DNA of 32,000 nucleotides from Erysipelotrichaceae bacterium MTC7 (GCA_001695645.1 LVZN01000007.1:1-32000); one strand, 5' to 3'; positions 1 to 20,661 are shown, numbered from the stretch's first letter. A program made the numbers and translations. Notes: generated by a model from the sequence alone, not told the origin.

Positions 1-3000
1 TCCAATGTTAAGACTAGGTTGTTTGCACCGATTGTGTATTTATCTCCGTGCTCAATCACGTCTTTATCAATAACTTTGATTTGGATGGTTACTTTCGTTG
101 CTGGTTCTTCTTTTACTCTAAATACGGCAACGTAGTCACCTTTTACTTTTTCAAACGTTGTACTTTCTAATTGTACTGTTCCTGCACTCATATCTTTACG
201 TTTGAATGCTTCTGCTTGCGCTAGTCCAATTAGTTCATCGTTATCTTTGATTGCTTTGGCTTCATCAACAGTTAAAACGAGGTTGTTTGCACCGATGGTA
301 TATTTATCACCGTGTTCAATCACATCTTTGTCGATTACTTTGATTTTAACTGTTGCCTTCGTTGCTGGTTCTTCACCAACTTTGAATGTTGCAGTGTATT
401 CTTTTGCAGTTGCACTTGCTGCCACAAAATCTGTACTATCTAAAACAACCGTTCCTTCACTTAAATCACTTAAGTTCCATGCTTTTGCTTTTGCAAGTCC
501 AACAAGTTCATCGTTACTTGCGATAGCTTTTGCTTGATCAAGCGTTAGGATGATGTTATTTGCAACAAGTGTATACTTATCGCCTTCTTTAATTACATCA
601 TTATCCACAACTTTAGCAATCGCAGATACTTCATCTAATGGATCAGTGGCTGCTTTTGCTTTGACTACGACGTCGTATTCATTAACTTCAGCTTTGTATC
701 CACCATTGTCTTTTACCATTAAGTCAGCTGCAGCTACTTCATAACCCGTTGCAATGGCCCAGGCGCGAGCTCTTGTTTTTTCAAGAATTTCTGCATCTGT
801 ACCTTTTACATCATCTTTTAGGATGACATAGTTGTGAATGTCATAGGCATAGTCTTTACCGATGTATAAACCAACGGCAACAACTCTGCGTTTTATTGCG
901 GTATTGAAATCACTATCCGTTACCGTGTACTCAAGAATGTACATTCCTTTTTTACTTGTGTCTACAGTTCCAGAAACAATAACTTTGCTTGTTAAGTCAC
1001 CATCTTCTGCATCTTGGGCAAAGACTCCGTGTTTGTAATCGAAACTTGCACCAAGTGGAACTGACATAAAGGCAGGATCAACTGTTAGTATTGGAGCTTG
1101 TCCTTTTGTCACATTGACATTAACTGTTGCTTTTACACTTGGATCTGCATCCACTTTGAATGTTGTTTTGTATAAATCTACAGCATCTCTTACCGTATGT
1201 GAATCCAGGGAAACTGCTGTTTCTTGACGGGTCTGACGAATCCATCCTTTAGCACCTGTAAGTTCTTTTAATTTTGTTTTTGCATAGTTTGCATCATCTT
1301 GAATTTTCTTAGCTTCACCACGTGTAATCTCTGTGTGGTTTGCAGCGATGATGTAGTTATCAGTTGTAACAACTACGTCATAAGGAAGTACTTCAAAGGT
1401 TACTTTCTTGATAACGCCTTCATCTCCATCAATACAGAAGGTTACAGTGTAAACACCAGCTTCTGCTTTGAATCCACCTGTATCTTTTACTTTAATCGGT
1501 GCGTTGCTTCCATCTGTTGTTTTTGTCCCTTTTGCATTAGCTAGGCGAATGTAGTCTGCATCACTTACAACCAGTTTTGCATCATCATACCCCATGATGA
1601 CATCATTGGCTGTAATCTTGTATAACTCCGCCTTCACTGTAAGCTTCGTTGCTTGTGGGAACATAGCATCATGATACTTGGTTGCACTGACTGGGTTGAT
1701 ATTTCCTAATGCATCTTCTAAGAAGATTTGCACGGTATCATTTGCTTTTAGTGTTACGTTTGCAGGGAATGTGTAATTCCACGTTCCATTTGCATTCAGA
1801 ACACCTTCATTTGCCATTTTTGTTCCATTTACCGTAACCGTTAAACGTACTGGAGGATCATCATTATGTACACCATCAAGTGTCCATGTACCCTCTAAGT
1901 AGTTTCCATTTGCGTATAGCGTGTTACTTACGATAACCGGCAATGGAGGTGTTTTATCAATGGTTGTAACAACACCGGTTGTAATATCACTAGGCAATGC
2001 TTCATGTGTTCTTCCAGAATCAGGATCTTCCGTTCCACGCCAAGCGCGTAACACTTCGTATGTAGTTCCTGTTTGAATAAAGTGACCAACATCAAAGACA
2101 AAGATACCACCTTTTGCTGGTTCACCATAAATTGAAACACCCGCATGTCCATCACCCATTCCTACAGAACGAGCAACCACTTCACGTTTTGTTCCATCAG
2201 GTAATGTTTCCAGTAAGGTTACATATACTTCATCCGTCCATGCATCACGAATACCTGAAGTGATTCCTTCAGGAACGCCTACATGTCCATAAACATACTT
2301 ATCCGCATTGGTTGGTACGTAAAGTCCATTAACCACTGGACGTGCATTGTTTCCAGAGATTCGACTATACGCTTTCATTCCCATAGAACCAAATGTAGAC
2401 GTATTAAATTCACCTGGATGACTTGTACTTAGAATTTTACTAAAGTCTGCGTTGTTTAATTTAAAGTCAAGCACTGACCAACTCCGATATGGGTTGCCAT
2501 AGATACTTGTTCCTTTGTGCCAAACAGCTAAATCGGAATTCGTTGAAGTATAAGTTGATTGATCATTTACATCAAACACCAATCCACCAGTCTTATTACC
2601 TGCATCATAACGTGTATTTGCAAAATCGTAATACAGTGGATTATCATTGACGAAAACCACTTTTCGAACATTGAAAATCGCTTCATCGTCTGATTTGGTT
2701 TGTCCGCGAGCAACAAAGGTTGCTTGATCTGCTAAGGTAATATGTGCTTCTCCTGAACCATCAATATCTACGGCTGCTCCATAGTCAGCTTGAATGTTTA
2801 TCGATGAACCAAGTCCTGAAACATCAAATATTTGTCCTGATGACTTCCCAGATTTATATTGAATCCCTTGGTTTTTACCATTTGAACCAGGGTTTGCTGC
2901 AGTTCCATCACCAACGTTTAGAACCTTGATTTTCCCACCGCTTCTAACATAAAACTCATTGCTTTTTCCATAGAAACGCATCGCTGGAGCTTCTGATTTA

Positions 3001-4364
3001 GTTCCAACTTTCGAAATGTTTACTTCAGCGTTATCCGAGATATCGAAACGTTGATATCCAACCAGTCGTAAACGGAAAGTTGCTCCATAAGAGTCACTAC
3101 CTCCAAGACTTTGCACGTTCATTTTTGAACCGGCACCTGCAACAACAAACATTCCTCCGGTAATTTGTGAAATTACCCCAGGGAACGATTTTGTTCCATC
3201 CCCTTTACTGTTTACATCCAGTACAGCACCATCGGTGATTTTTACAAAAGAATCCCGAACGGGGTCGCCTTCATCATCCGTATCGCTTTCTGTTTCGTTA
3301 GCAGTCCCGGCAAAGGATACTACCGCATGGGAGTTCCCCGTACCATTTCCATTTGCTGAGGCTTTAATTTCTGTACCCGGATCTTTAATGTGTACTTGGA
3401 TCGAGTACTTCTTTCCTTCTTTCCCTAACCAAATGGCTGCATCCTCTTGCGAATGCAAGGTCATCTTTGAGGCTTTGTTTACATCCATTTTAATCATGGC
3501 ATTTTCACCAACAGGGTTCGCGTTAAAGATAACGTGTTGCGCTGTAACATTTACATTTGCACCATTGGTAATCGTAAATTCTTTTGCTACGAATACCCCT
3601 GCTGCTGAACTTTTCCCACCACTGTGCGCTCTGCTAGTTGTGGTCCATGTAATGTTACCAGTAAGTGTTATTTTACTTTCTGTTGCTTTAAATATATTGG
3701 CTGCCGTACTCCCTGTGTGTGAAAGGTTATGTAATGATACATGCCAATTGTTTGTATTTGCGTTACGATTCGTATCCGAATCCGAGTTGTCCGTATGCCG
3801 AATTAAGTAGGTACAACCTACATTCGCAACTTTGATTCCAACCAACCCTAAATTTGTTAGATTCGAAACACGAGCCAAAATAAATGCTTCATCTTTATCA
3901 TTTTGGAAATCCAACGTATAGTTATTTCCATTAATGACTAAGTTTCGATTCACCATCGGTAAGTCATTGTCATCATTCCCTGTTCTTGTGATGTTAGTTG
4001 TAAAATTAATTACACTAACACCGGAATTACTCATTGCTGAACGCAACTGATCCCAACTGCTAACATCAACTGAACTAGCTAACGTCCCTACCTGAGGTGC
4101 TACTTCTTGTTTCTGAGGTTTTTCTATTTCTCCCTCATCTACTTGTTCTGGTTCCTCTATTTCTTCTGGTTCTTGTTCTTCTTCAATCACTTCATTTTCG
4201 TCTACATCTTGATCGACTTCTTCAACGACTTCATCTGCATCTGCAGATAAAATGACATCACTGACTAACGAAGAAATTCCTAGTGAAACAAAGGTTAACA
4301 GAAAACATAAAACAACAATAAATAGTGTTTTCTGCTTTTCCCAGAAACTTTTTCTTTTTCTCAT
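1..4364 (-). CDS. Giant secreted surface adhesin, 5' part only (1454 codons; 3' end lies beyond the window start). Signal peptide, D/E-rich acidic linker, N/G/T-rich beta-helix-like region, DUF5011-type Ig-like domain, then ~88-aa tandem modules.
   Basis: Absent from the ORF track because the frame runs off the edge, so I translated it by hand. ATG at 4364 is preceded by AAAGGAGAGA (4371-4380). The product begins MRKRKSFWEKQKTLFIVVLCFLLTFVSLGISSLVSDVILSA/DADEVVEEVDQD... The frame was spot-checked open at ~3000, ~2150, ~1590 and 541-780. It contains APILTVDP..AQDAEDGDLT..GMYILEYTVTD and repeated GDKYTIGANNLVLTVDEAKAI modules. Confidence 0.85.
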   Translation of the reverse strand, partial: MRKRKSFWEKQKTLFIVVLCFLLTFVSLGISSLVSDVILSADADEVVEEVDQDVDENEVIEEEQEPEEIEEPEQVDEGEIEKPQKQEVAPQVGTLASSVDVSSWDQLRSAMSNSGVSVINFTTNITRTGNDDNDLPMVNRNLVINGNNYTLDFQNDKDEAFILARVSNLTNLGLVGIKVANVGCTYLIRHTDNSDSDTNRNANTNNWHVSLHNLSHTGSTAANIFKATESKITLTGNITWTTTSRAHSGGKSSAAGVFVAKEFTITNGANVNVTAQHVIFNANPVGENAMIKMDVNKASKMTLHSQEDAAIWLGKEGKKYSIQVHIKDPGTEIKASANGNGTGNSHAVVSFAGTANETESDTDDEGDPVRDSFVKITDGAVLDVNSKGDGTKSFPGVISQITGGMFVVAGAGSKMNVQSLGGSDSYGATFRLRLVGYQRFDISDNAEVNISKVGTKSEAPAMRFYGKSNEFYVRSGGKIKVLNVGDGTAANPGSNGKNQGIQYKSGKSSGQIFDVSGLGSSINIQADYGAAVDIDGSGEAHITLADQATFVARGQTKSDDEAIFNVRKVVFVNDNPLYYDFANTRYDAGNKTGGLVFDVNDQSTYTSTNSDLAVWHKGTSIYGNPYRSWSVLDFKLNNADFSKILSTSHPGEFNTSTFGSMGMKAYSRISGNNARPVVNGLYVPTNADKYVYGHVGVPEGITSGIRDAWTDEVYVTLLETLPDGTKREVVARSVGMGDGHAGVSIYGEPAKGGIFVFDVGHFIQTGTTYEVLRAWRGTEDPDSGRTHEALPSDITTGVVTTIDKTPPLPVIVSNTLYANGNYLEGTWTLDGVHNDDPPVRLTVTVNGTKMANEGVLNANGTWNYTFPANVTLKANDTVQIFLEDALGNINPVSATKYHDAMFPQATKLTVKAELYKITANDVIMGYDDAKLVVSDADYIRLANAKGTKTTDGSNAPIKVKDTGGFKAEAGVYTVTFCIDGDEGVIKKVTFEVLPYDVVVTTDNYIIAANHTEITRGEAKKIQDDANYAKTKLKELTGAKGWIRQTRQETAVSLDSHTVRDAVDLYKTTFKVDADPSVKATVNVNVTKGQAPILTVDPAFMSVPLGASFDYKHGVFAQDAEDGDLTSKVIVSGTVDTSKKGMYILEYTVTDSDFNTAIKRRVVAVGLYIGKDYAYDIHNYVILKDDVKGTDAEILEKTRARAWAIATGYEVAAADLMVKDNGGYKAEVNEYDVVVKAKAATDPLDEVSAIAKVVDNDVIKEGDKYTLVANNIILTLDQAKAIASNDELVGLAKAKAWNLSDLSEGTVVLDSTDFVAASATAKEYTATFKVGEEPATKATVKIKVIDKDVIEHGDKYTIGANNLVLTVDEAKAIKDNDELIGLAQAEAFKRKDMSAGTVQLESTTFEKVKGDYVAVFRVKEEPATKVTIQIKVIDKDVIEHGDKYTIGANNLVLTL
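7..640 (-). repeat. In-frame tandem coding repeats inside the adhesin gene, with periods of 264 and 273 nt (88 and 91 codons).
   Basis: GTTAAGACTAGGTTGTTTGCACCGAT at 7 recurs as GTTAAAACGAGGTTGTTTGCACCGAT at 271 and, more diverged, at 544. The first ~105 nt of copies 1 and 2 are roughly 85% identical by eye; the rest is more diverged. Confidence 0.8.
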
Positions 4365-4440
4365 ACAATTTCTCTCCTTTCATAAGTTTTCATTTTCAAA
4401 TCACACACTTGAAAACATAACTAATTTACGACAATAGTAA

Positions 4441-4467
4441 GATGTGCTTGAATCCTACCAGGTTCAT
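4441..4467 (-). promoter_or_regulatory. Possible internal ECF-type promoter in front of the adhesin gene (ATGAACCT-N-CATCTTAC).
   Basis: On the minus strand, ATGAACCT (4460-4467) sits directly after the stop of the upstream gene. The spacing from GAAC to CATC (4441-4444) is 17 nt. The heptamer and spacing are the same as in the candidate promoter at 12184-12210, but the -10 element is degenerate. Confidence 0.25.
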
Positions 4468-4469
4468 TT

Positions 4470-6917
4470 TTAGCGAAACTTTTTTGCTTTTTTTCGCCAT
4501 ACACCATATGTCCCTAAACATATGGAAAGTATCATGACAAAAACAACGTTCGCTTTATTCGATACATCACCAGCAGCAACACTTGCACTACTTGCTTGTG
4601 TGTTGCTAATTGAAGTACCATCGCTATTCTCTACTACGTGTAAATCGAAAGCTTTGTTGACTGTTACATGTACGGCAATTCGTTGTTGTTGTGTCTGCCC
4701 TATTTCATCCACAACACTTGCCGTAAATGCTAACCTATAGATTCCCCCTTCCTTTCCTACCTTTTGAATGGCAGCAAGTTGATTTGCATTTGCTTCAATG
4801 CTTGCTGCAACGACTTCATTTTGATCACCATCACAAACCGCAACTCCGGCAAATTGAATGGCTTGTGATTGTTGTAACTGCTTTGCCTCATCATATGTAA
4901 GTTCAAAGTCATGACCAGTTAAAACAAAATCCCCAATTTCATCAAAGATCGATGTGCTTTCTCCAAGCACAGTTACCTTGATTTTCTTGCTGACTTCCAC
5001 ATGGTCGACTTTGACAGTGTAAAGCAGTTCATATATGCCTCCTTGTTTGGAAACATTTTTGATGGTTTGCCACTGTGCTTCGTGAACGGTTGTTGCCTGA
5101 CTAGCACCAACAAACTCATGAATTTCACCTTGGCTGTTTCGATCCATCAAGAAGGCATGGACATTGGCATCCGCAATGATTTTTTGTTTGGTTAAACTTT
5201 GTACTTGTTCAAAGGTGTAGACAAGATCGTCTGCTCCAATAATGGCATTTGCTAGTTGATCCATGACACTATGCTTGTTGCTAATCAATACTTGTATTTC
5301 TTTTGTACAAGTTTTTCCATCTTGATTTTGAACGTCATAAGCAATTGTATAAATACCAATGTCACGAAATTCTGGATTTCCTTTAACTACGGTGTAGGTA
5401 ATTTGTTCATCACTTAGTTTGCGTGTTACCGGTGCAAGACCCGGCGTATCGCTAGCTTCTAACCAAGTCGCTTCTATTCGGTGTTTCAAACTATAATCGA
5501 TGTTGGGATTCCCCAATTCATAACGTTGCAGTGGTGCTTGTATTTCAGGTAAACCATGAACTTTTACCACTCGTGTAAACTCTGTGACATACCCTTTTTG
5601 ATCTTCGACTTTGTAAGCCACTTCATAGGTTCCTACGTTGTTGGTATTCACATTATTTTGGACAACTTCAACTTTGTCGATTAAGTTTTGTTGCTTTTCA
5701 TCATAGACTTGCATTCCCTGTAATGGATCAAAAGCATCACCAACATACATGTCCACTGTGTTTGCTTCAAACACTGGACCATCCCACCAAAGGATGGGTT
5801 GTTCAATGGTTCCAATAAACCAGAACGTATCGATGATGTGATAATCAATACAATAACTGTACGACGTTTGACTTGGATCTAACGTTAGTTCTATCTCTGT
5901 TACGTCCTGCTGCTCAATTTGCATCGGAATCGTCGTTCCACTTGGATCTTTTACAAGTGACTTGATGGTTACTTTCCCTGTCTTTTTATCACCAATGACA
6001 TGTTCCGGATTGGTATAACGTTGTCCTTCGTTGTTGTTTGGATCCAAATATGGCTCAGCATCCGAATAAAAACGTGCATAAATGGCCGCTTTCATATTTA
6101 CTAATGGAGAAAAGTCGACAATTTGATTATTGTTTAACCAGACTTGTGGTCGACTACCCGACACTTGGATACTTGCTAGTGGAGACACATCGCTAATCTT
6201 ATTGTTTCCCAGTCCCAAATAACTGATTTTTGTCAAACCAGAGAGTGGACGAATATCACTGATGTTATTGAAGTCTAAAGTTAAACGCTTCAAATCCGGA
6301 AAATTTGCTAAATGTGCAATGTTTTCTAATTTATTGTTTTGTAGATGCAAGGCATATCTCGTTAAACCTCCAGTTACTGGAAGTGTTTGTAAATCTGCAT
6401 CGGTAATGCCATTATTGTTAAGCATCAATTGCTCATCAAGTGCAGGAAAACGTTCCGCTGTAAACAACGACAAATCGTGAATCGCGTTAGTTCCTCGCTT
6501 CCAGTTATTGAACTCCATTGCACGTAAGTTTGGATACATGGCCTCACGCATCGGTTCTAAACTTTGAATGTTGTGGTCATTTAAATATAGCGTTTCAATG
6601 TTTGTCATATATGCAATTCCCGTTAAATCGCTAATGCGCTTACTTGGATCTGCGGTATTGTAACTAATTGTTCTAAGGTTTTTTAAATCGTCTGTACTAA
6701 AGTTTTCTGGTATTTCTGGGCGACTGACAAGATAGTTATAGAAATTCTCATCAGGAACAAGTTCACGTCCACGTTTATTGGTTTCTTGCGCTTGGACTTG
6801 GATATTTTCACTATTTGCTAGTTGATCCGCACTTGTTGATTGCATTAACCATGCAATGCACAAAAATGCACATAGAAAACAAATAAGTAACGTTTTGTTT
6901 TTATTTTGCTTGTTCAT
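4470..6917 (-). CDS. Internalin-like LRR surface protein with several Ig-like (DUF5011-type) domains and a C-terminal TM anchor.
   Basis: 815-aa ORF with RBS AAGGAGGT upstream and signal peptide ...WLMQSTSA/DQ. LRR units are visible (LxxLxLxxNxIxDxxPL, e.g. LTLDFNNISDIRPLSGLTKISYLGLGNNKISDVSPL). Ig-type motifs include VGDAFDPLQG..GTYEVAYKVEDQKG. The C-terminus is a hydrophobic helix followed by WRKKAKKFR. Confidence 0.85.
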   Translation of the reverse strand: MNKQNKNKTLLICFLCAFLCIAWLMQSTSADQLANSENIQVQAQETNKRGRELVPDENFYNYLVSRPEIPENFSTDDLKNLRTISYNTADPSKRISDLTGIAYMTNIETLYLNDHNIQSLEPMREAMYPNLRAMEFNNWKRGTNAIHDLSLFTAERFPALDEQLMLNNNGITDADLQTLPVTGGLTRYALHLQNNKLENIAHLANFPDLKRLTLDFNNISDIRPLSGLTKISYLGLGNNKISDVSPLASIQVSGSRPQVWLNNNQIVDFSPLVNMKAAIYARFYSDAEPYLDPNNNEGQRYTNPEHVIGDKKTGKVTIKSLVKDPSGTTIPMQIEQQDVTEIELTLDPSQTSYSYCIDYHIIDTFWFIGTIEQPILWWDGPVFEANTVDMYVGDAFDPLQGMQVYDEKQQNLIDKVEVVQNNVNTNNVGTYEVAYKVEDQKGYVTEFTRVVKVHGLPEIQAPLQRYELGNPNIDYSLKHRIEATWLEASDTPGLAPVTRKLSDEQITYTVVKGNPEFRDIGIYTIAYDVQNQDGKTCTKEIQVLISNKHSVMDQLANAIIGADDLVYTFEQVQSLTKQKIIADANVHAFLMDRNSQGEIHEFVGASQATTVHEAQWQTIKNVSKQGGIYELLYTVKVDHVEVSKKIKVTVLGESTSIFDEIGDFVLTGHDFELTYDEAKQLQQSQAIQFAGVAVCDGDQNEVVAASIEANANQLAAIQKVGKEGGIYRLAFTASVVDEIGQTQQQRIAVHVTVNKAFDLHVVENSDGTSISNTQASSASVAAGDVSNKANVVFVMILSICLGTYGVWRKKAKKFR

Positions 6918-8109
6918 GTTTACCTCCTTTCTTACGACGTCGATTCATGATAAACAAAACGACGAGTAACAAGGATACGATGAAAGGTATAGCACTTATC
7001 CCCAATCGAAATGGTAGTGAAACATCTGCTCTCATCTTCAATGAAGTAACAAAGTCATAAGAGAAAGTTCCCGCTGATGCAATGATTTCATCGTCATATA
7101 AAGTTAAGTGACTACCTTCTTTAATGTTATCTAAGCGATACGACACGCCTGGAGCTTTTGAAGGTCGCTCACGATCGGTAAAGAAGGCAAAGACAACCGT
7201 ATCTTCAACGATGCGACTAAGATCTAAAGACCATCCTGCAAATGCACGATTGTCCAGTTGTGGATCTTTGATGTCTTGGGCACTTTCCCCGTGATTGACA
7301 ATCCTCTGTTCATACAACGTGTCATCAATGTAGTACGACACCAAGTATTGTTTTAATCGATAGGTTGCATATACGTTTAAATCACTTGTAATTGGTTGTC
7401 CTTGATAGAACTTTGCAGTTCCATCGCTTTGTAAATTAAACCCAAGAAAGACGTGTCCTTCTTTTTGCAATCCATGTAAACTAAGACTTTTGTTGTGTTC
7501 CACATGATGCGTTTGTAATAACGTTGCACCATCATACACTTTTACTTGATGCATTTGGTTTGCACGAAATGCGAAATTTCCCTGGAATGCATGTTCGTAT
7601 GTTTCCGTTGCATCTCCGACCGTAATTCCTTGTGCTCGTACTTGCGTATCCACGCTTATTTTGTTTCGTGAAGAACCTGTTGTTGTAACATCTAGTTCAA
7701 TCACATGTTTTACATGATTTAGTTGCATCGATAATCCAGACTTGAGCAATGCTTGATATTCACTTTGCGTTGCGTTTTTTCCATCAATGCGAAGCACCCC
7801 TTGTGCATACGGCTTGAAGGCAACCCCTTCTTTTTCAAACACCCTTATTCGGGTATCTAAAGATCCTGAACGATTGGCAACTTGAATTTGCAATCGCACT
7901 GTGGAACCATAGGCAATTGATCCAGCACTGGAAAGTTCTTTTTCTTTTCCTGAGGTTTCAATAAGTTTTGCACTTGATGAAAGTTGTAAATCCAAATACG
8001 TTTCAGCAGCAACGACATGTTGTCTAAAGCCAAACAACATCATACTTATCATGGTGAGTATAAGTACGAGTTGTCCTAATGTTTTTTTACGTTTTTTATG
8101 ATTCGACAT
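6901..8109 (-). CDS. Secreted protein with a DUF11-like beta-sandwich, two Listeria-Bacteroides-type repeats and a C-terminal TM anchor.
   Basis: The likely start is ATG at 8109 (MSNHKKRKK...), with GGAG 11 nt upstream; the track start at 8136 looks like an extension. The signal peptide ends VVAA/ET. Motifs seen are GSTVRLQIQVANRSG, GHVFLGFNLQSDGT..VYATY and FAGWSLD. The C-terminus is hydrophobic followed by NRRRKKGGK. The gene overlaps the next gene by 17 nt. Confidence 0.75.
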   Translation of the reverse strand: MSNHKKRKKTLGQLVLILTMISMMLFGFRQHVVAAETYLDLQLSSSAKLIETSGKEKELSSAGSIAYGSTVRLQIQVANRSGSLDTRIRVFEKEGVAFKPYAQGVLRIDGKNATQSEYQALLKSGLSMQLNHVKHVIELDVTTTGSSRNKISVDTQVRAQGITVGDATETYEHAFQGNFAFRANQMHQVKVYDGATLLQTHHVEHNKSLSLHGLQKEGHVFLGFNLQSDGTAKFYQGQPITSDLNVYATYRLKQYLVSYYIDDTLYEQRIVNHGESAQDIKDPQLDNRAFAGWSLDLSRIVEDTVVFAFFTDRERPSKAPGVSYRLDNIKEGSHLTLYDDEIIASAGTFSYDFVTSLKMRADVSLPFRLGISAIPFIVSLLLVVLFIMNRRRKKGGKHEQAK

Positions 8110-8113
8110 TGGC

Positions 8114-9430
8114 TTATTGCTCCACTTGCACAACATACGAAATCATATTTCCCGAAACATCATAGATGGCTACATAAACTTCACCATGAAAGTCATGTTT
8201 GATTTTTCCATCTCTTGGGATTGGCATACGTGTTTCTTGATAGAGTACATACGATGTATCATAATCAATCCCTGATGCTCCATCTTTAAACTGTAAACTT
8301 AAATACCCGTCCGCATATCCAATCTCCAGCATCTCTGGTGCTTTGATATCAATGTTATCGATGGTTACATTACGTGTATCTTTATCGACTTGGATCTTAT
8401 ACGTTCCATTTTCACTAGCAACAAAAGATAAGACATCTTGATCAACTTCAAAATCAATGGCTTTCGCTTCTTTTGATACTTGAATATGGGAATGATCGAC
8501 TTTGTTTTTCAACTTCGCTTTTACTTCTACCTTTTTATTGGTTGGTTCTTGGTGATAACTAACGTCAATAATTTCTGCATCTTGTAGGTGCAAACTTTGA
8601 TACACGACATAGCTCGTGGTGGTTCCTAAACCTAGCACACCAACAATCGCTGCTTTTGAAAGATTGGAAAGTGTTTTCGATGCACCCACAGTCAATGGAA
8701 CAGCTGCTCCAATGGATGCTTTTCCCACATGGACCACCGAATCATAAATTTGCGTTGCTGCATTTGGTGACAATGGTTTTTGTTGCAACAATTCTTTAAA
8801 TATTTGAAAGGCAAAAGGACTAAATACAAAACTGAAGTAACTAAGTGGTGAATATCCACGTTCACTTAATCCTGGCTGAATGACTTTACGCACTCGTTTT
8901 AATCGCGTCTTCACCGTTCCTTCAGGTATTTTCATAATGTACGATATCTCTTTAACAGACAGTCCAACGTAATATTTCAACATACCCACTTCAAAGAATT
9001 TTTCTGGTAATTGATTTAGTTCGCTTTTGATTGCAGCATACACTTCTTTGCTTTCAACTTCGTGAACTTGATTGTTATCAACAACCACCATTTCTTCAAG
9101 ATTGGTGTCTTCTCCAAGTTGTACTTGGCGACTCCGCTTGCGATACAAGGTTTGTGAACTGTTGTAAGCAATTGTAAAAATCCAAGCGTGAAAACTCTTA
9201 GGATGTTTTAACATTTGTATATTTTTGTATACGCTTAAAAACGTTTCTTGTACCACTTCTTCTGCATCTGCTTGATTTTGCATCAATTTTAAACCAAAAT
9301 AATAAATTGGATTTTTGTAGAAATCGTAAATGGCATTAAACGCGTCTACATCACCGTCTTGAAAACGTTCGATGTAACTAACATCCAATTCTTTATGGTC
9401 CCTACTTTTTCCGTTTGTATCCACACTCAT
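8114..9430 (-). CDS. Sigma-70 family (ECF-like) sigma factor fused to a TM helix and a ~155-aa extracytoplasmic beta-sandwich region.
   Basis: Region 2 reads DAEEVVQETFLSVYKNIQMLKHPKSFHAWIFTIAYNSSQTLYRKR. Region 4 reads LPEKFFEVGMLKYYVGLSVKEISYIMKIPEGTVKTRLKRVRKVI. A hydrophobic segment AAIVGVLGLGTTTSYVVY follows, then beta-rich sequence containing NIDIKAPE and DGASGIDYD. A G-rich RBS (GGGGG) precedes the ATG at 9430. Confidence 0.85.
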   Translation of the reverse strand: MSVDTNGKSRDHKELDVSYIERFQDGDVDAFNAIYDFYKNPIYYFGLKLMQNQADAEEVVQETFLSVYKNIQMLKHPKSFHAWIFTIAYNSSQTLYRKRSRQVQLGEDTNLEEMVVVDNNQVHEVESKEVYAAIKSELNQLPEKFFEVGMLKYYVGLSVKEISYIMKIPEGTVKTRLKRVRKVIQPGLSERGYSPLSYFSFVFSPFAFQIFKELLQQKPLSPNAATQIYDSVVHVGKASIGAAVPLTVGASKTLSNLSKAAIVGVLGLGTTTSYVVYQSLHLQDAEIIDVSYHQEPTNKKVEVKAKLKNKVDHSHIQVSKEAKAIDFEVDQDVLSFVASENGTYKIQVDKDTRNVTIDNIDIKAPEMLEIGYADGYLSLQFKDGASGIDYDTSYVLYQETRMPIPRDGKIKHDFHGEVYVAIYDVSGNMISYVVQVEQ

Positions 9431-9475
9431 ACATCAACCCCCGTATTTTGAATTTATAAATACTCACACAATTTT

Positions 9476-10045
9476 TTATTTGCCAATGACAAATAAACCC
9501 TTACTTATAATGTCACTACGTTTTACTGCTCCAAACATTCTTGAATCTCGTGAAACTCTGCGGTTATCACCACAAAGGAAATACTCATCTTCACCTAAAA
9601 CCAGTGGTCCAAAGTCACTGGTAAATTTTTCGATTCCATGGTTGGTTTGTTTACTTTTATAACGTTCATCGAGAAAGTATTCATCGACGACTTCTCCGTT
9701 TATATACAACATGTCATCACGGTATTGAATGGTTTCACCAGGCAAACCGATGATGCGTTTGGTAAGACTCTTTTGTTCCTCATGATCGTACGTTGTAACG
9801 ATATCGAAACGTTCTATGTGCCCAAGATAGCGACTTAAAATACCCGTCAAGCCCATTTCTCCATTTTCTAAGGTTGGATACATACTCGATCCTTCCACAT
9901 AGACAATACGCACAATGCAGGTTAAACAAACATACAAGGCCAAGGTCAATGAAAACACCAGACGCAACAATTTCAACATCTCGAGTTTCCATTTGCTTCT
10001 TTTTATGTCTTTTCGCAATTCCATTTGTCTATTTGATGGACGCAT
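9476..10045 (-). CDS. Type I signal peptidase (S26 family) with an intact Ser/Lys dyad.
   Basis: Conserved boxes are GSSMYPTL (Ser), KRIIGLPGE (Lys) and GDNRRVSRDSR. There is an N-terminal TM segment. The likely start is ATG at 10045 (MRPSNRQ...), with GAAGGTGGTGA upstream; the track start at 10096 is an extension. Confidence 0.9.
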   Translation of the reverse strand: MRPSNRQMELRKDIKRSKWKLEMLKLLRLVFSLTLALYVCLTCIVRIVYVEGSSMYPTLENGEMGLTGILSRYLGHIERFDIVTTYDHEEQKSLTKRIIGLPGETIQYRDDMLYINGEVVDEYFLDERYKSKQTNHGIEKFTSDFGPLVLGEDEYFLCGDNRRVSRDSRMFGAVKRSDIISKGLFVIGK

Positions 10046-10058
10046 ATATTCACCACCT

Positions 10059-10979
10059 TCACACACTGTAATGTTTCCTTCGCTTTCTATACACATAGAT
10101 TCCTGTAACGCCTAAAACGATGGCAAAAATGTGCCACGTTTTTTTACTACCCGTTGGAATGTTTTGTTTGTTTATGTCTTGATCATCAATTACATCTAGT
10201 TGAAGTTGGAAACAGAGCACACCGTTAGACATTGCTTTGTAGGCTCCTGCATCTTCTTTATGATTGATTTCTAGTTGTAAGACTGGTCCACTAGCTATAT
10301 GCGTACGTTGACCAGTGGCATCTTGGTATTCCCAAGTGATTGATTGATCATATGGCAATGTTTCTGTTTGTTTTGTTGGTACTTGTTGCCAAGTTCCATT
10401 TTTGTATTGATAGGTTTCATTTCGACTATAGGAGAGTGCGATTTCGATATGATCACCTATCTTTTTTTGCTGGTATAACATACCTTGTTGTAAGTTGCTT
10501 TCGTCGATTCTTGTCTGATTCAAAAGAATTTGAAGACAATTCCCCTCTTCCATGACGATTTGTTTTACATCCTTACCCAAAACGCTTGCATCAAGTTGTT
10601 TAACATACCATGCGGAGCGTTTTGCTGGAACTTGCATTTTTGCGAATTGTTGGCTTCCAGTAAAGATATCATTTCCCACAAATGTTACATCCTCCTGTAT
10701 CCACAATTCTTGTAGTTCGTTGTTTTGTTTAAATGCTTGTTCAGCAATTGCGCTTACTTTTTTTCCCTTATATGTTGCAGGTATTTTTACAACGGCTTCT
10801 TTGCCTACATAACGTGTGATTTGCACACTTCCATCTGCCAAATCTTGATAATAAAAGGTTTGATCTTGGTGGATGTTTCCAGTTGGCATATGACTGTTAA
10901 TCACTGTGCTTAGGACACAGACACATAGACAACTTAAGCAAAAAAGTTCTTTTAAAAATATCCTTCTCAGTTTATGCAT
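10059..10979 (-). CDS. BspA-type LRR (LRR_5-like) surface protein with a C-terminal TM anchor.
   Basis: Hydrophobic N-terminus. The sequence VKIPATYKGKKVSAIAEQAFKQNNELQELWIQEDVTFVGNDIF is typical of BspA-like repeats. The C-terminus is WHIFAIVLGVTGIYVYRKRRK. The ATG lies 2 nt after the stop of the upstream gene. Confidence 0.7.
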   Translation of the reverse strand: MHKLRRIFLKELFCLSCLCVCVLSTVINSHMPTGNIHQDQTFYYQDLADGSVQITRYVGKEAVVKIPATYKGKKVSAIAEQAFKQNNELQELWIQEDVTFVGNDIFTGSQQFAKMQVPAKRSAWYVKQLDASVLGKDVKQIVMEEGNCLQILLNQTRIDESNLQQGMLYQQKKIGDHIEIALSYSRNETYQYKNGTWQQVPTKQTETLPYDQSITWEYQDATGQRTHIASGPVLQLEINHKEDAGAYKAMSNGVLCFQLQLDVIDDQDINKQNIPTGSKKTWHIFAIVLGVTGIYVYRKRRKHYSV

Positions 10980-10981
10980 TT

Positions 10982-12148
10982 TTATGAATTGTTTTCTTCA
11001 CTTTGTGCTTTTAGATTTTCACCGATGTTCATCTTACCAGCGATCTTCGCACCTTTTTCAATATCAATGAATTTCGCATGGATATCGCCAAGAATCATCG
11101 CCGTACGTGAGAATGAAATCTCACTATCCGCAGTTACATTCCCTTCAATAGAACCGTGAATATCCATTGAGTTTGCTTGCATGTTCCCTTTTACGAACGT
11201 TTCACTGCCGACGTATAAGTCTTGTTCCACGTTTACGTTTCCTGCAATTTTTCCATTTTCTAAACGTAGTGATGCAGCACTAACATCACCTGTAATTAAT
11301 GCATCCTCTGCGATTTCGACGCGTTCCTTACAAATTAAGTTTCCACGAATTTCCCCTTTTACCAATAATGGTGTTGTGACCGTAACATTTCCATCAATCA
11401 CAATCCCTTTGGCAAATACTGAACTTTCTGTTGGCATAGCTGGAATGATTGGTTCCACTGGTGTTTCGTGTACTTCATTTCCTTCTAAGTATTCATCCAC
11501 GCGTTCTTTAAATTTCTCTTTGTATTTCTCGTCGTTAAATTTCATCATGTCTTGTTTTTCCTCAACTTCCGTTTGTTCTTGTTTAACTGTAGCAATCGTT
11601 TGTTTTTCTACACGATCATGTTCCTGTATATCCATGACTTTTACTGCAGTTGGTTGTTTATGTCGCATGGCTACACTTGGCGTGTATGCATTTGCTTGCA
11701 ACAACACTTGTTCCATATCGTTTTGTAAACCATAAATCTTTTCGCCTTCATTTTCGATAAACTCATTGATATATGACAACATTGCATTTGCTTCGTTTAA
11801 GTCATAATCATCAATAGGACGATCGTAAAGCGAAGCCAACATGGTATTGCAACCATCCAACGTTCTTGATAACTCCCTGTAACGAGTATCCAGTTGTTTG
11901 CTTTGCGCTAAGGCTAAGCTATCTTTATCAGTTGCAACCACTTGTTCCAAGTGCTTCCAATGTTTTGAGTCCAGCACATTTGCCAACTCCTCATAGGCAC
12001 TTTTTGACAACGCAAGTTCTTTTATATATTTTGACTTGAGTAATCGTCGTACCAATAAGGTCACAATAAACGTGAGTCCCAATAAAACTAGAAACGTAAC
12101 GATAAAAGGAATGGAAAATATTCCCACTGCTAGAATCAGATATTCCAT
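10982..12148 (-). CDS. Membrane-anchored bactofilin-domain protein: N-terminal TM, helical linker, C-terminal DUF583/bactofilin domain.
   Basis: ATG at 12148 (MEYLILAVG...) is preceded by AAGAAAGGAGAAACT. A ~30-residue hydrophobic stretch is followed by RRLLKSKYIK. The C-terminal ~125 aa, GIVIDGNVTV..VKGEIRGNLIC..ITGDVSA..IAGNVNV..VKGNMQA..IEGNVTA..ILGDIHA..IAGKMNIG, is the bactofilin beta-helix repeat pattern. Confidence 0.8.
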   Translation of the reverse strand: MEYLILAVGIFSIPFIVTFLVLLGLTFIVTLLVRRLLKSKYIKELALSKSAYEELANVLDSKHWKHLEQVVATDKDSLALAQSKQLDTRYRELSRTLDGCNTMLASLYDRPIDDYDLNEANAMLSYINEFIENEGEKIYGLQNDMEQVLLQANAYTPSVAMRHKQPTAVKVMDIQEHDRVEKQTIATVKQEQTEVEEKQDMMKFNDEKYKEKFKERVDEYLEGNEVHETPVEPIIPAMPTESSVFAKGIVIDGNVTVTTPLLVKGEIRGNLICKERVEIAEDALITGDVSAASLRLENGKIAGNVNVEQDLYVGSETFVKGNMQANSMDIHGSIEGNVTADSEISFSRTAMILGDIHAKFIDIEKGAKIAGKMNIGENLKAQSEENNS

Positions 12149-12183
12149 AGTTTCTCCTTTCTTCTTCGCACAATAATAAGTTA

Positions 12184-12210
12184 GTCGCACAAAACGACTT
12201 TTAGGTTCAC
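12184..12210 (-). promoter_or_regulatory. Candidate ECF-type promoter for the seven-gene operon: GTGAAC C-N16-CGAC.
   Basis: The minus strand reads AAAAAGTGAACCTAAAAGTCGTTTTGTGCGACTAAC. GAAC is at 12205-12208 and CGAC at 12184-12187, with a 17-nt spacer. The element lies ~36 nt upstream of the ATG at 12148. It matches the AAC-N16/17-CGT/CGAC architecture of group 4 sigma promoters. Confidence 0.4.
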
Positions 12211-12337
12211 TTTTTTGATAAAAAAATAAACTTTTAAAGATTTCCTTTTTAACCGTATTTGATAAATCATGTAAGCTTCAGTAGAAAAAAGAAACATTTA
12301 AAAATTTTTGAACTTGCAAATCTTTGTTTTATAAAAT

Positions 12338-12398
12338 GAAAGGACTTCGTGGAAGGAGTAACTATAAGTCATTGCTTATGTATTTGTGAAGTCCTTTC
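12338..12398. other. Perfect 11-bp inverted repeat (GAAAGGACTTC / GAAGTCCTTTC) with a 39-nt loop, in the long region upstream of the operon.
   Basis: The arms are at 12338-12348 and 12388-12398. An inner 5-bp ATAAG/CTTAT pairing is also possible. On the minus strand the repeat is followed by ATTTTAT. Confidence 0.5.
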
Positions 12399-12623
12399 CT
12401 AGATTGTTTGTTTCCATTTATTTGCATCTTATGTAAACAAGGTACACAACACTCGGATTGTAGATTATGGATATTGGTTTTAATGACAATCCGGAATGTT
12501 ATGTAAATCAATCCAAACAAATGAATGACCATGCACAGCCTTGTGTGCGCCCCTTTATACCTCCTATCGCTTCACAATCACTGGTCCTGTGATTTGTAAA
12601 AAAACCTTATCAAACAAAAAAAA

Positions 12624-12695
12624 CTTTGTCTTCTATTGTAAAAACTTTTTTTATTTCAAGTACTTTTATGACATATATCCGTCTTTCTGTGACAT
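12624..12695. promoter_or_regulatory. Conserved ~72-nt intergenic element, copy A. It contains the palindrome AAGTACTT and two direct repeats CTTTyrTGACAT spaced 21 bp apart.
   Basis: It aligns with 15437-15507. TTTCAAGTACTTTTATGACATATATCCGTCTTTCTGTGACAT here matches TTTCAAGTACTTTCATGACATAAATTCGACTTTCTATGACAT there, and flanking CTTGTCT..AAAACTT is also shared. Confidence 0.6.
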
Positions 12696-12790
12696 GCTTA
12701 TTTTCTATACATAGATTAGACTTAATATAGAAATATTTATCATAAAGGAATTCCATTGCGATAAAGTCATAAATTGTCTATGATATAGGT

Positions 12791-13678
12791 ATGAAGAAAA
12801 TACTATTTGTGTACAACCCAGTTGCAGGTAAGGGAATGATCAAAAACAAACTAAGCAAGATCATCGAAGCTTTCTCAGCAAACGATCATGCGCTAGTTAC
12901 CTATGCCACAAAAGCAGAAAACGATGCTTATGATCACATCGTTCAATATGGATCGAACTTTGATCAAATCATATGTAGTGGTGGCGATGGAACCCTAAAT
13001 GAAGTGATCAATGCATGTATGAAAATTGACTATAAGCAAAACCTTGGTTACATTCCAACCGGAACGGTGAATGATTTCTCTAAGTCGATTCAAATGGAAA
13101 CAGATTTAGACAAACTTTTAGACAATTTCAATAGTGAAACAAAAATCCAAACCATTGATGTTGGTAAGTTGGATCAACGCTACTTTGTCTACGTCGCTGC
13201 GTTTGGTAGCATCAGCGAAGTGAGTTACTCCACCCCACAAAACACCAAGAATACAATTGGTAAAGTTGCCTATGTCCTTGAGGGAATCAAGAAAGTCACA
13301 CGCCAAGATAAAATCCATATGCGTATAGCATACGACGATGGTGTGATCGAAGATGATTTTTGCCTTGGTTTAATTACGAATTCCCTATTTGTTGGTGGTA
13401 TCAACTTTTTTAGTGAAGATGAAGTGTCTTTGGATGATGGTTATTTTGAATGCATCTTCATCAAATATCCAAAAGGACCTATCACTTTAAACCAAACCCT
13501 TTTTGATATTACGACGCGCAACTTTGAGCATACTGATAAGATGTACGCATTCAAAACAAAAAAGCTGCACATCACAAGCCGAAAGAAAGTCAAATGGACT
13601 GTTGATGGTGAATATGGTGGCACCTATAAAGATGTTGAAGTCACCAACTATCAAAAGGCTATGACGATTCTAAAATAA
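12791..13678 (+). CDS. Diacylglycerol-kinase-family lipid kinase (DagK/YegS/BmrU-like).
   Basis: 295-aa ORF with the motifs NPVAGKG, the GGDGTLNEV catalytic loop and IPTGTVNDF. It is the only plus-strand gene in the window. Confidence 0.85.
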   Translation: MKKILFVYNPVAGKGMIKNKLSKIIEAFSANDHALVTYATKAENDAYDHIVQYGSNFDQIICSGGDGTLNEVINACMKIDYKQNLGYIPTGTVNDFSKSIQMETDLDKLLDNFNSETKIQTIDVGKLDQRYFVYVAAFGSISEVSYSTPQNTKNTIGKVAYVLEGIKKVTRQDKIHMRIAYDDGVIEDDFCLGLITNSLFVGGINFFSEDEVSLDDGYFECIFIKYPKGPITLNQTLFDITTRNFEHTDKMYAFKTKKLHITSRKKVKWTVDGEYGGTYKDVEVTNYQKAMTILK

Positions 13679-13693
13679 CCTATAACATAAACG

Positions 13694-13720
13694 GAGCACC
13701 CGCATTACTAGCGAGTGCTC
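13694..13720. terminator. Bidirectional rho-independent terminator between convergent genes.
   Basis: GAGCACCCGC-ATTACTA-GCGAGTGCTC forms a 10-bp stem with one mismatch. It is followed by TTTCTTATTTC on the plus strand. Confidence 0.7.
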
Positions 13721-13738
13721 TTTCTTATTTCTACTAAA

Positions 13739-15229
13739 CTATTGATGTTTTTTCTTTTTTGCTAGAACTGTCGTTGCTCCTGCAAGTAAAATAAACATGC
13801 CAAATACACTTGTTGTATCACCCGTTGCTGGTCCATTGTTGTTTTCTGGAGCTACAGCTGGTTCTTCTTTTGGCACTGGATTTGGATCCACAATTGGATC
13901 TGGTTCCGGTTTTGTTTCTGGTTCCGGTTTTGGTTCTGGTTCTGGTTGTGGGTCTGGTTTTGTGATATCCTCTTTTACAGTCAACTCACTCATAACGTAC
14001 ATATGTGTATTTCTGAGTTGTTCTTCACCAGGATACGCTGCATCAAATTCACTTGGTGCATGTGAGTTATCAAAACACAGACTATCCGTTTCCGCAAAAG
14101 GTTCCACGAGTTTGTAGTAATAGTTTAAAGGCGGAAGTTCTTGTGCTTTCGAAACAAAGTTTGAACCTTCTATCGTCCACTTGCTATCTTCTGGCAATAA
14201 CACGTTATCCATGTTGATTCCTTCCGTGCTGACCACGTAACCTTCACTTGTTTTTTGCGCAACGTATGCAACTTTATTCGCTTTCACATTGATGGGTTCA
14301 ACCCCTTCAAACTCGCTATCAACAAACAGATAATCCATCAGTGGATAGGCATACACTGCTCCACTATAGTCGTGATAATCAACACGTCCACTTACCAAAT
14401 CAGGTAGATTCAAATACTTGAACTGATTGCCACCAATAAGCAACCATTCCAAATGCACGGCATGTGCCAATAAATTTACATCACTTATGTTTGTGTTGAT
14501 CAAATCCAAAGTATATAAACGCTCCGGACGGAAATTCAATGTTGCAAGTGGCATATCCGCTAAGATGATTTCCTCTGCATTTACACGTCCGTGAATGGTT
14601 GTCAGATTTGGTACACCCATCATAAGAAAGCGAACCAATGGTTGATCATGCTTGATATACAGTGATGTGATGGATGAATTCACATTGATGAAATCTTTCA
14701 TCATAGGTACACCAGAAACGTCAAGTGTATCCGTCTTTACACCATTCATCAACAATGTGATTTTATTTCCTGTATTTTCACCTGTTACAACCTTACTTAC
14801 ATTGGGCGAGTTAATCACCGTTACTTCTAAATCTAAGGATATGTAATATGGCTGATTGTTTGCATCCAAACCAAAAGTTGTTGCTGAACTATGTAAGCCA
14901 GTTAGATCTAATGTTTCATGTTTATATCCATTGATTTTAAGAAACTCCACATCTGTGAAATATTCAATCCCCGAAAAGTCTTGAATGTCGTATTCGTTAC
15001 AATCGAAATAAATCTCTGGATTTTTTACCATTTCGTTTAACTCATCCCCTGTACTGTAATGGTTCAGCACCAGTCTTCGAAACTCTTCATCAGGAAACGT
15101 GGTTGCATTTACTTTCACGGTTCCATAATAGGGTTGCACTTCTGTTTTTAAATTTGTTAGGTTAGGCTGTGGTAGCACAACACCACCCATGATGGATAGC
15201 ATAATACATGCTGTTGTTAGTAATTTCAT
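13739..15229 (-). CDS. LRR surface protein with a PEPEPK-type proline-rich stalk and an xPxTG-like (GPATG) C-terminal sorting signal.
   Basis: RBS GAGGAG and an N-terminal signal peptide. LRR-like units are visible (LDLINTNISDVNLLAHAVHLEWLLIGGNQFKYLNL). The stalk reads PDPQPEPEPKPEPETKPEPDP. The C-terminus is NNGPATGD followed by a hydrophobic stretch and KKKKHQ. Confidence 0.8.
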   Translation of the reverse strand: MKLLTTACIMLSIMGGVVLPQPNLTNLKTEVQPYYGTVKVNATTFPDEEFRRLVLNHYSTGDELNEMVKNPEIYFDCNEYDIQDFSGIEYFTDVEFLKINGYKHETLDLTGLHSSATTFGLDANNQPYYISLDLEVTVINSPNVSKVVTGENTGNKITLLMNGVKTDTLDVSGVPMMKDFINVNSSITSLYIKHDQPLVRFLMMGVPNLTTIHGRVNAEEIILADMPLATLNFRPERLYTLDLINTNISDVNLLAHAVHLEWLLIGGNQFKYLNLPDLVSGRVDYHDYSGAVYAYPLMDYLFVDSEFEGVEPINVKANKVAYVAQKTSEGYVVSTEGINMDNVLLPEDSKWTIEGSNFVSKAQELPPLNYYYKLVEPFAETDSLCFDNSHAPSEFDAAYPGEEQLRNTHMYVMSELTVKEDITKPDPQPEPEPKPEPETKPEPDPIVDPNPVPKEEPAVAPENNNGPATGDTTSVFGMFILLAGATTVLAKKKKHQ

Positions 15230-15436
15230 AATTTCTTATCTCCTCTTCATTTACAAATATCTACTAATTTCCCTTACAATAATGGTCTTTCGATTTTGTT
15301 AGTCACACACGTATAAACATACACCTCCCTGTCAGCTTACGATAACTGATGATCGTACTTCAAAGTATGATGTATATTTTCTAGTTTATTTGACACCACA
15401 CACTTTGATAATATGACATTAGCAAATATGTTTTTT

Positions 15437-15507
15437 CTTGTCTCGAGTAATGAAAACTTATTATTTTTCAAGTACTTTCATGACATAAATTCGACTTTCT
15501 ATGACAT
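15437..15507. promoter_or_regulatory. Conserved ~72-nt intergenic element, copy B, in the same orientation as copy A.
   Basis: See 12624-12695. ATGACAT at 15480 and at 15501 are exactly 21 bp apart. The palindrome AAGTACTT is at 15470-15477. The element lies 208-278 nt upstream of the ATG at 15229. Confidence 0.6.
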
Positions 15508-15560
15508 TTTGATAGAATATATATAATTTATGGATAAAACAATTCGAAATTTAAACAAAA

Positions 15561-15586
15561 AAGATCACAAATTTTACTGTGATCTT
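15561..15586 (-). terminator. Rho-independent terminator of the DUF2971 gene.
   Basis: The minus strand reads AAGATCACA-GTAAAATT-TGTGATCTT followed by TTTTGTTT. The 9-bp perfect stem overlaps the TAA stop. Confidence 0.75.
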
Positions 15587-16325: not shown

Positions 16326-16337
16326 CCGGCGTTCTCC

Positions 16338-16406
16338 CTATTGTTCAAGAAAGGCAACCAAGGATTCCACTGATGTTACATCTTCGACTTTCATTTGCTT
16401 TTCCAT
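16338..16406 (-). CDS. Possible 22-codon acidic small ORF (MEKQMKVEDVTSVESLVAFLEQ) immediately upstream of the DUF2971 gene.
   Basis: ATG at 16406 is preceded by GGGGGA. Its TAG stop overlaps the GGGAGAA RBS of the DUF2971 gene. It lies downstream of an extended -10 promoter. Confidence 0.3.
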   Translation of the reverse strand: MEKQMKVEDVTSVESLVAFLEQ

Positions 16407-16429
16407 ATGTCCCCCATTACACTACACAT

Positions 16430-16458
16430 AGTATAACAAATATTCTACACTTTGTTAG
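16430..16458 (-). promoter_or_regulatory. Sigma-A-type promoter with an extended -10 for the small ORF and DUF2971 gene.
   Basis: On the minus strand, CTAACA (16453-16458) is followed by a 17-nt spacer and TGTTATACT (16430-16438, TGn-TATACT). Confidence 0.45.
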
Positions 16459-16991: not shown

Positions 16992-17076
16992 ATAATACAT
17001 CCTCACTAGCAACTAGATTACCATTATCTTAGTTATTTGTAAATATATTTTGATAATCAAAGTAAATAAATATGTA

Positions 17077-17098
17077 AAAAGCTGACTTTCATCAGCTT
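17077..17098 (-). terminator. Rho-independent terminator after the cadherin-like protein gene.
   Basis: The minus strand reads AAAGCTGA-TGAAAG-TCAGCTTT followed by TT. Confidence 0.6.
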
Positions 17099-17107
17099 TC
17101 TGTATCT

Positions 17108-18445: not shown

Positions 18446-18456
18446 ATTCTCTCCTT

Positions 18457-20079: not shown

Positions 20080-20102
20080 TACTACTCCCTCGCTTCCCTG
20101 CA

Positions 20103-20631: not shown

Positions 20632-20661
20632 AAACTCCTCACAACATAAACAACCATATTA

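Follow-up and report, generated by a model that had tools for sequence, protein, structure and literature searches.

The 32,000-nucleotide (nt) stretch of DNA analyzed here, from Erysipelotrichaceae bacterium MTC7 (GCA_001695645.1 LVZN01000007.1:1-32000; hereafter the window), carries on its minus strand a gene for a type I signal peptidase of MEROPS family S26. We found that this protein has intact catalytic boxes, that it is an accessory paralogue in its genome, and that its gene closes a conserved three-gene unit, the trio, behind genes for a bactofilin-domain protein and a leucine-rich repeat (LRR) surface protein. A promoter motif of the extracytoplasmic function (ECF) type lies ahead of the trio and is shared with the gene for a membrane-tethered sigma factor; a residue of the substrate pocket is changed, and the LRR partner carries an invariant Pro-Thr-Gly (PTG) directly past the hydrophobic core of its signal peptide. 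Comparing sequences, we put at about an even chance that this is a sigma-controlled peptidase dedicated to the upstream LRR protein, following the logic by which SipW serves TasA. The features concerned are these.

12184..12210, minus strand: promoter motif of the ECF type, GTGAACC-N15-GCGAC, some 35 nt ahead of the bactofilin gene start.
10982..12148, minus strand: transmembrane (TM)-anchored bactofilin-domain protein, 388 amino acids (aa) from the ATG at 12148; first gene of the trio.
10059..10979, minus strand: BspA-type LRR surface protein, 306 aa, with a signal peptide and a sorting signal; proposed substrate.
10046..10058, minus strand: spacer between the LRR and S26 genes, 13 nt, in which the Shine-Dalgarno sequence AGGTGGTGA overlaps the LRR stop codon.
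9476..10045, minus strand: accessory type I signal peptidase (S26, clade A), 189 aa, assigned by Pfam, NCBIfam and alignment.
8114..9430, minus strand: fusion of an ECF sigma factor, a TM segment (residues 260-277) and an extracytoplasmic domain, 438 aa; likely regulator and possible second substrate.

The S26 open reading frame (ORF) ends at 9476, stop codon included, and starts with the ATG at 10045, which lies 13 nt past the stop of the LRR gene and is preceded by GAAGGTGGTGA. Read from this ATG, the N terminus aligns with those of the orthologues, so that spacing, Shine-Dalgarno sequence and alignment agree on the start that had been proposed earlier. Since the short spacer holds a Shine-Dalgarno sequence overlapping the upstream stop codon, the LRR and S26 genes are tightly coupled. 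The product matches Pfam Peptidase_S26 (PF10502; E=4e-39, 134.7 bits, cut-off 22.9) and, at 117.7 bits against a cut-off of 47, the equivalog model TIGR02227, "signal peptidase I, bacterial". It falls below the threshold of TIGR02228, the archaeal/SipW-type (S26B) model (17.5 bits, cut-off 51.85), and below those of TIGR02771 for TraF conjugative peptidases (34.6 bits, cut-off 100.25) and TIGR02754 for nickel superoxide dismutase (Ni-SOD) maturation proteases (25.6 bits, cut-off 63.25).

The original prediction had read the S26 boxes as complete and had set the protein apart from the catalytically dead SipA type, and on both points it was right. Ser54, the nucleophile, stands in GSSMYPTL (box B; codon 9884-9886), Lys96, the general base, in TKRIIGLPGE (box D, containing the KRIIGLPGE named earlier; codon 9758-9760), and box E, GDNRRVSRDSR, occupies residues 159-169. 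In alignments, Ser54 and Lys96 coincide with the dyad residues both of solved structures (best relatives 4nv4, 4me8 and SpsB, 4wvg-4wvj) and of 47 S26 proteins from the family. A hydrophobic TM segment (residues 29-45) follows a Lys/Arg-rich N terminus, and by the positive-inside rule the catalytic domain should lie outside the membrane. Compared with the gene of an 88%-identical metagenome relative (L094), the ratio of nonsynonymous to synonymous substitution rates (dN/dS) is 0.08 at a dS of 0.82, which indicates strong purifying selection. Every sequence-defined feature of a bacterial type I signal peptidase (MEROPS S26A) is present, and the window protein is thus assigned to this class, with a predicted proteolytic activity.

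The genome (G000; 2.48 Mb, 99% complete; Breznakia group of the Erysipelotrichaceae, by its closest database relatives) contains three S26 genes, one each in the window and on contigs C13 and C78. The C13 gene (C13:31005-31610, 201 aa) immediately precedes rbgA/ylqF and rnhB. This rbgA-rnhB neighborhood is the usual setting of the main lepB of the family, as judged from 19 sampled copies, and a sister species (G057) has the housekeeping context trmD-rplS-lepB-rbgA-rnhB. Thus, a paralogue count proposed with the earlier reading shows that the window gene does not encode the sole signal peptidase of this genome: by its context, the C13 copy is the housekeeping lepB, and the window copy is a catalytically intact accessory paralogue.

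In the third S26 homologue (C78:75440-75979, also L003:1420-1959; 179 aa), the Ser/Lys dyad is replaced by Thr and Arg. Its gene is flanked by genes for an 824-aa IPETG protein and a 410-aa pilin-like protein, and a sortase gene adjoins. With no dyad and with pilin-like and sortase neighbors, it resembles a pilus chaperone of the SipA type. The counterpart of this pilus locus in the sister species (on contig C36) is directly followed by another sigma-TM fusion gene.

Could the window protein itself be a nonproteolytic chaperone of the SipA/LepA type, aiding sortase-dependent assembly of the LRR protein? S26-like pilus chaperones are known, and in the pilus loci of Streptococcus pyogenes, as in the window, an S26 fold is encoded among genes for Gram-positive surface proteins; the LRR protein also has a sortase-type sorting signal. 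SipA, however, is a chaperone without the dyad (PMC4049620), whereas the window protein keeps the dyad and all boxes intact under strong purifying selection, and the dyad-less C78 homologue in its pilin/sortase locus fits the chaperone role better. We consider a chaperone function highly improbable.

The window peptidase and its closest relatives form clade A, a small clade of the Breznakia lineage; these relatives are 88, 61, 54, 51, 50, 49 and 49% identical to it, and the next matches are housekeeping LepBs. The gene order TM-bactofilin, BspA-type LRR protein (about 306 aa) and S26 recurs in seven of seven clade-A loci that could be read, namely, the window, G057:C28, L089, L090, L091, L094 and L095, of which five are metagenomic contigs; in L090 the upstream genes of the trio are fragmented. 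The junctions between the LRR and S26 genes span -11 to +13 nt, the window having +13 and its relatives -11 to +4. The sigma fusion, which starts 45 nt downstream of the S26 gene with no terminator-like site in the gap, is indeed directly adjacent in the window, as had been claimed, and it is the next gene after S26 in only two of the seven loci, the window and L094. In L094 the sigma-fusion gene is broken into ORFs of 67 and 372 aa by a frameshift in a run of A residues; this is a Logan metagenome contig, and the break marks either a pseudogene or a fault in assembly. In the sister species, the sigma orthologue (59% identity) lies 23 kb upstream of the trio on the same strand, at the head of an adhesin island, and the trio is the tail of that island, followed by fur and rubrerythrin genes; the tail in L089 is alike. 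Thus, the trio is the unit that is conserved, and the adjacency of S26 and sigma is a local rearrangement.

The distribution of the LRR protein agrees with that of the enzyme. By profile search, a full-length LRR protein of the trio type occurs in 2 of 149 genomes of the family, the same two that have a clade-A S26 gene, and none was found in G126, of the same genus. Queried by itself, the LRR protein retrieved just its own sequence and one relative in a word-indexed homologue search. In a profile search against 1.84 billion representatives, giant BspA-repeat proteins dominated the matches, and the five full-length members that did come up were all known before. Conserved linkage (seven of seven loci) and co-occurrence (two of 149 genomes) with one exported protein are what a dedicated peptidase would be expected to display. 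It had been suggested that the enzyme matures four co-encoded exported proteins. Of the two roles that had been inferred, this dedicated one is the better supported; the number four does not hold, since the conserved partners are the LRR and bactofilin proteins. The bactofilin protein and its orthologues (L067, L089, L091 and L094) begin with an N-terminal hydrophobic stretch of about 30 residues and a conserved RK-rich segment, followed by a 200-aa coiled coil and a C-terminal bactofilin domain.

Clade A differs from other S26 enzymes at the residue preceding the catalytic lysine, Thr95 in the window protein. This residue is Thr or Ala in seven of eight clade-A proteins. Among the 112 other top database matches it is Val or Ile in all 108 that could be read (in the remaining 4, box D did not fit the pattern, and they were left out), and the same is true of all 44 other dyad-bearing S26 proteins in the family sample, including the other sigma-linked ones. 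The position corresponds to Ile144 of the Escherichia coli enzyme and Val76 of Staphylococcus aureus SpsB. In structures of SpsB with peptides, Val76 contacts the P1 side chain and, together with Ile32, bridges the S1 and S3 pockets (PMC4704075, PMC2259416). Changes of the bridging residues in LepB lead to slippage of the cleavage site and altered P3 specificity (PMC4704075, citing Karla 2005 and Ekici 2006; PMC2259416).

On the partner side, the six full-length LRR proteins evolve fast, with a mutual identity of just 23-30% and a dN/dS of 0.25-0.44. Invariant among them are Glu11 in the n-region and Pro32-Thr33-Gly34 directly past the hydrophobic core (codons 10878-10886 in the window gene). 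A seventh, fragmented copy has PTN instead of PTG. One generic BspA relative, from a genome that has no clade-A S26 gene, has a signal peptide ending ISA↓E (the arrow marks the cut) and no PTG; here and below, signal-peptide ends and cleavage sites were read by eye using the -3/-1 rule. We also considered the N-terminal PTG as a sortase site and found this unsupported: sorting signals in this genome are C-terminal, the proline before the threonine is invariant at the N terminus, and the context differs. The sorting signal of the window LRR protein is indeed at its C terminus, NIPTGS followed by a TM segment and a basic tail. About 28 surface proteins of the genome carry a C-terminal sorting signal x-(P/I/V)-x-T-G-D rather than the classical LPXTG (in the window, at 10059-10160 and 13739-13840), often continuing (T/S)TN before the TM segment and basic tail, and there are four sortase genes in the genome.

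Other exported proteins of the island are encoded downstream of the sigma fusion, as follows.

6901..8136, minus strand: exported Flg_new (Listeria-Bacteroides repeat) protein, 411 aa, signal-peptide end VAA↓E.
4470..6917, minus strand: internalin-like surface protein with LRR and immunoglobulin-like (Ig) domains, 815 aa, signal-peptide end TSA↓D.
3..4364, minus strand: giant adhesin-like ORF, more than 1,454 aa, running off the contig end; last visible gene of the island.

The ends VAA↓E and TSA↓D look like ordinary sites of the A-x-A type, and the adhesins at the clade-B loci described below likewise appear to have ordinary A-x-A-like sites. Proteins with such ordinary-looking sites would need no special enzyme. 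Two further sigma-fusion and adhesin loci of the genome, both on contig C23, have no S26 gene, so an extra peptidase is not a general need of such islands.

These observations bear on a simple alternative, that the gene adds general secretion capacity as a redundant LepB paralogue that is co-induced with a group of exported proteins, relieves the load on signal peptidase and has no particular substrate. The window enzyme shares the fold family, the catalytic boxes and the N-terminal anchor of housekeeping LepB/SpsB, all its boxes are standard, and the tree places it in an unresolved group that includes housekeeping LepBs of the family. Within the family, lepB is commonly duplicated in tandem, and the island encodes several exported proteins. 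The window enzyme nevertheless differs from the housekeeping copies in the Thr at the S1/S3 bridge, in the absence of the C-terminal tail typical of the family, in gene context and in its long branch. A stem of 0.89 substitutions per site, a clade-specific change at a specificity-determining residue and strict linkage to one small LRR protein with an invariant noncanonical motif speak against redundancy, and other sigma-fusion adhesin islands of the same genome and genus do without an extra S26 gene. We regard this alternative as distinctly unlikely.

ECF promoters have a standard architecture, with AAC at -35 and CG(A/T)C at -10. The pattern GTGAACY-N14-17-GCGWC has one match in the genome, ahead of the trio, and two in the sister species, one ahead of the trio and the other ahead of the sigma orthologue; it is also present ahead of the trio in L089. 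As a control, the reversed pattern matched 0-2 times on each strand of a genome, so that the number of matches is by itself unremarkable. The telling part is position: four of four matches lie at promoter distance from orthologous starts. This points to the trio as a member of the regulon of the sigma fusion. On the minus strand of the window, from 12148 to 4470, we saw no terminator-like site between genes. Because the trio stands directly in front of the sigma gene, the window probably contains a single autoregulated operon, which would begin with the bactofilin gene, include the sigma gene and extend into the adhesin genes.

The same arrangement allows another reading, in which the sigma fusion is the substrate. 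Its sigma domains take up residues 1-190, residues 260-277 form its one hydrophobic segment, and the ectodomain of a separate TM protein, whose gene adjoins that of an ECF sigma factor, is homologous to its C-terminal 160 aa. From the sequence, the TM segment would be oriented N-in/C-out, like a signal peptide, and it is short and rich in small residues. The S26 enzyme would then be a site-1 protease cutting the extracytoplasmic side of this segment, after which the single RasP-type site-2 protease would free the sigma domain. Since the S26 gene would itself be sigma-dependent, the outcome would be positive feedback. We hold such a role to be possible though doubtful; it could coexist with processing of the LRR protein. 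One gene for a site-2 protease is present in the genome (PF02163 match at C13:12196-13185, 198 bits), and the promoter motif is common to the trio and the sigma orthologue.

For the anti-sigma factors RsiV (cut by SipS/SipT) and RsiP, site-1 cleavage by signal peptidases is proven (PMC4183432, PMC8844934). In the sigma-V pathway of Bacillus subtilis, Clostridioides difficile and Enterococcus faecalis, an S26 enzyme makes the first cut in an N-in/C-out regulator and RasP makes the next; unlike the case of the window, housekeeping peptidases do this, at a conserved A-x-A located 7 residues past the TM segment and exposed by lysozyme binding (PMC4183432). The fusion family has no conserved A-x-A and no DUF4179 domain; DUF4179 gave no match in the window fusion, and across 24 sigma fusions we found no conserved A-x-A or other motif in the 12 residues past the TM segment, which counts against a site-1 role. 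A noncanonical site of the RsiP type is possible. RsiP of Bacillus thuringiensis requires a particular paralogue, SipP, and has the site VQS (PMC8844934), so that, as in the window, a specialized nonhousekeeping S26 enzyme is tied to an ECF pathway, that of sigma-P. The differences are that RsiP is a separate anti-sigma factor whose cleavage was shown experimentally, whereas the window system is known from linkage and co-regulation, and that PMC8844934 describes no gene linkage between sipP and sigP-rsiP, whereas the window S26 gene is linked to a sigma gene.

Active S26 genes also lie beside related sigma systems in two other lineages, and this keeps the site-1 role alive. In clade B (G057:C7, G057:C34 and G047:C20), an active accessory S26 gene opens the operon directly before its sigma fusion, and the S26 and sigma trees share their branching order, which suggests that the pair was inherited as a unit. 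In G057:C34, directly upstream of the clade-B S26 and sigma genes, there is a gene (L065:7252-7899) for a 215-aa protein that consists solely of a TM segment and the Ig-like ectodomain of the sigma-fusion family, with no sigma domain. In two genomes of another genus (G023/G101), an active S26 enzyme is paired with a split system, an ECF sigma factor and a TM anti-sigma protein homologous to the C-terminal half of the fusion (E=8e-8). Here a conserved four-gene block (L092:7387-9947, L093:8260-10742), which includes no adhesin gene, has a gene for a coiled-coil protein and the active S26 gene divergent from those for the ECF sigma factor and the TM protein (237-250 aa); the coiled-coil protein is weakly DivIVA-like (19 bits, below the cut-off), and no ECF motif was seen in the divergent intergenic region. 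Accessory S26 enzymes are in this way paired with two candidate cytoskeletal scaffolds, bactofilin in clade A and the weakly DivIVA-like protein in G023/G101. In the Breznakia-group genomes searched, all active S26 genes of nonhousekeeping type are in sigma-fusion islands, four of the five immediately upstream of the sigma gene.

Other findings argue against the sigma fusion as the substrate of clade A. The conserved neighbor is the LRR protein and not sigma: the orthologues in the sister species are 23 kb apart, and the trio of L089 is followed by the fur and rubrerythrin genes. Some 29 of 33 sigma-fusion loci found have no S26 neighbor. Three sigma fusions are present in the MTC7 genome, and scoring of part of the candidates gave at least 11 in one sister species and at least 12 in another; G126, with at least 12, has no accessory active S26 gene. 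Adjacency of S26 and sigma genes can equally be read as membership in one regulon. The proposal of a compact proteolytic switch encoded next to its substrate was therefore overstated, direct adjacency in clade A being limited to the window genome and one close relative. A possible parallel between the EPTN of the sigma ectodomain and the PTG/PTN of the LRR protein was considered and rejected, since the TN is conserved across the whole fusion family and the split anti-sigma proteins; Pro-Thr-Asn is also present in a fusion of G128, a genome that has no clade-A S26 gene.

The best tree separates clades A and B. By the approximately unbiased (AU) test, a single clade A+B was not rejected (p=0.34), and adding the third lineage to it was marginally rejected (p=0.036). 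Hence, we dropped three independent origins of the sigma-linked S26 groups in favor of at least two independent associations. A broader interpretation would be that S26 paralogues were recruited, probably more than once, as built-in site-1 proteases of tethered ECF sigma factors and their split relatives. Sigma factor, protease and promoter would then make up a self-amplifying switch, and the LRR protein and bactofilin (or the DivIVA-like protein) would be a co-substrate or a positional scaffold. Taken as a whole, we consider this interpretation unlikely.

Returning to the dedicated peptidase, we propose the following course of events. Transcription of the trio would be driven by the ECF-type promoter that it has in common with the membrane-tethered sigma factor gene. 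The peptidase would cleave the unusual signal peptide off the LRR protein, the product of the gene immediately upstream. The cut would fall at or beside the invariant PTG, either after it, with Pro at P3 and Gly at P1, or just upstream. A cut directly before Pro32 is unlikely, since peptides with Pro at P1' inhibit SpsB. Thr or Ala in place of Val or Ile at the S1/S3 bridge may adapt the enzyme to this site. The data fit an enzyme-substrate pair of the SipW/TasA kind, a fit that falls short of proof. Several points weigh against it. For S26 enzymes, the combination of Pro at P3 and Gly at P1 is unusual. We had considered that pocket residue and partner motif co-vary strictly, but this fails for the clade-A protein P0007, where Val goes with TPTG, and Ala at the bridge position is not unique, as it is seen in at least one solved S26 structure, 4me8. 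Gene order shows linkage and not an enzyme-substrate relation. The true functional partner could be either the sigma fusion or the bactofilin protein. Sampling is also narrow, covering one genus-level lineage and the five metagenomic contigs.

The nearest precedent for the proposed pair is SipW of B. subtilis, encoded in tapA-sipW-tasA. As in the window, an accessory peptidase is part of the operon of its clients and the general peptidases are encoded elsewhere. SipW, however, is an endoplasmic reticulum (ER)/archaeal-type S26B enzyme, whereas the window protein is of the bacterial P type with a Ser/Lys dyad; the SipW client is a fiber subunit, and the partner in the window is a sortase-anchored LRR protein. 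Unlike the SipW operon, the window module adds a TM-bactofilin and an ECF sigma factor. In the literature searched we found no description of a module of bactofilin, LRR protein and S26 with a sigma factor, and the main text of an ECF classification paper (PMC7826278) has no mention of signal peptidases. What is new is the combination of a trio that includes a membrane-anchored bactofilin, a PTG signal-peptide end, a pocket substitution and the private promoter of a tethered sigma factor.

Few accessory signal peptidases with clients of their own are known, SipW and SipP among them, and how S26 enzymes gain new specificity is poorly understood. Clade A may offer a natural case that unites three features: a change at the S1/S3 bridge, an invariant noncanonical motif in the partner and a presumably sigma-dependent expression. 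The comparison also lends support to a repeated linkage between signal peptidases and ECF sigma factors in Firmicutes. The narrow taxonomic range limits the impact, as does the comparative nature of the evidence. The trio may have to do with the site or manner of surface-protein display in Erysipelotrichaceae of the insect gut. As to base composition, the G+C content of the adhesin island (1-12200) is 0.37-0.41, slightly above the 0.31-0.39 of the rest of the window (12200-32000).

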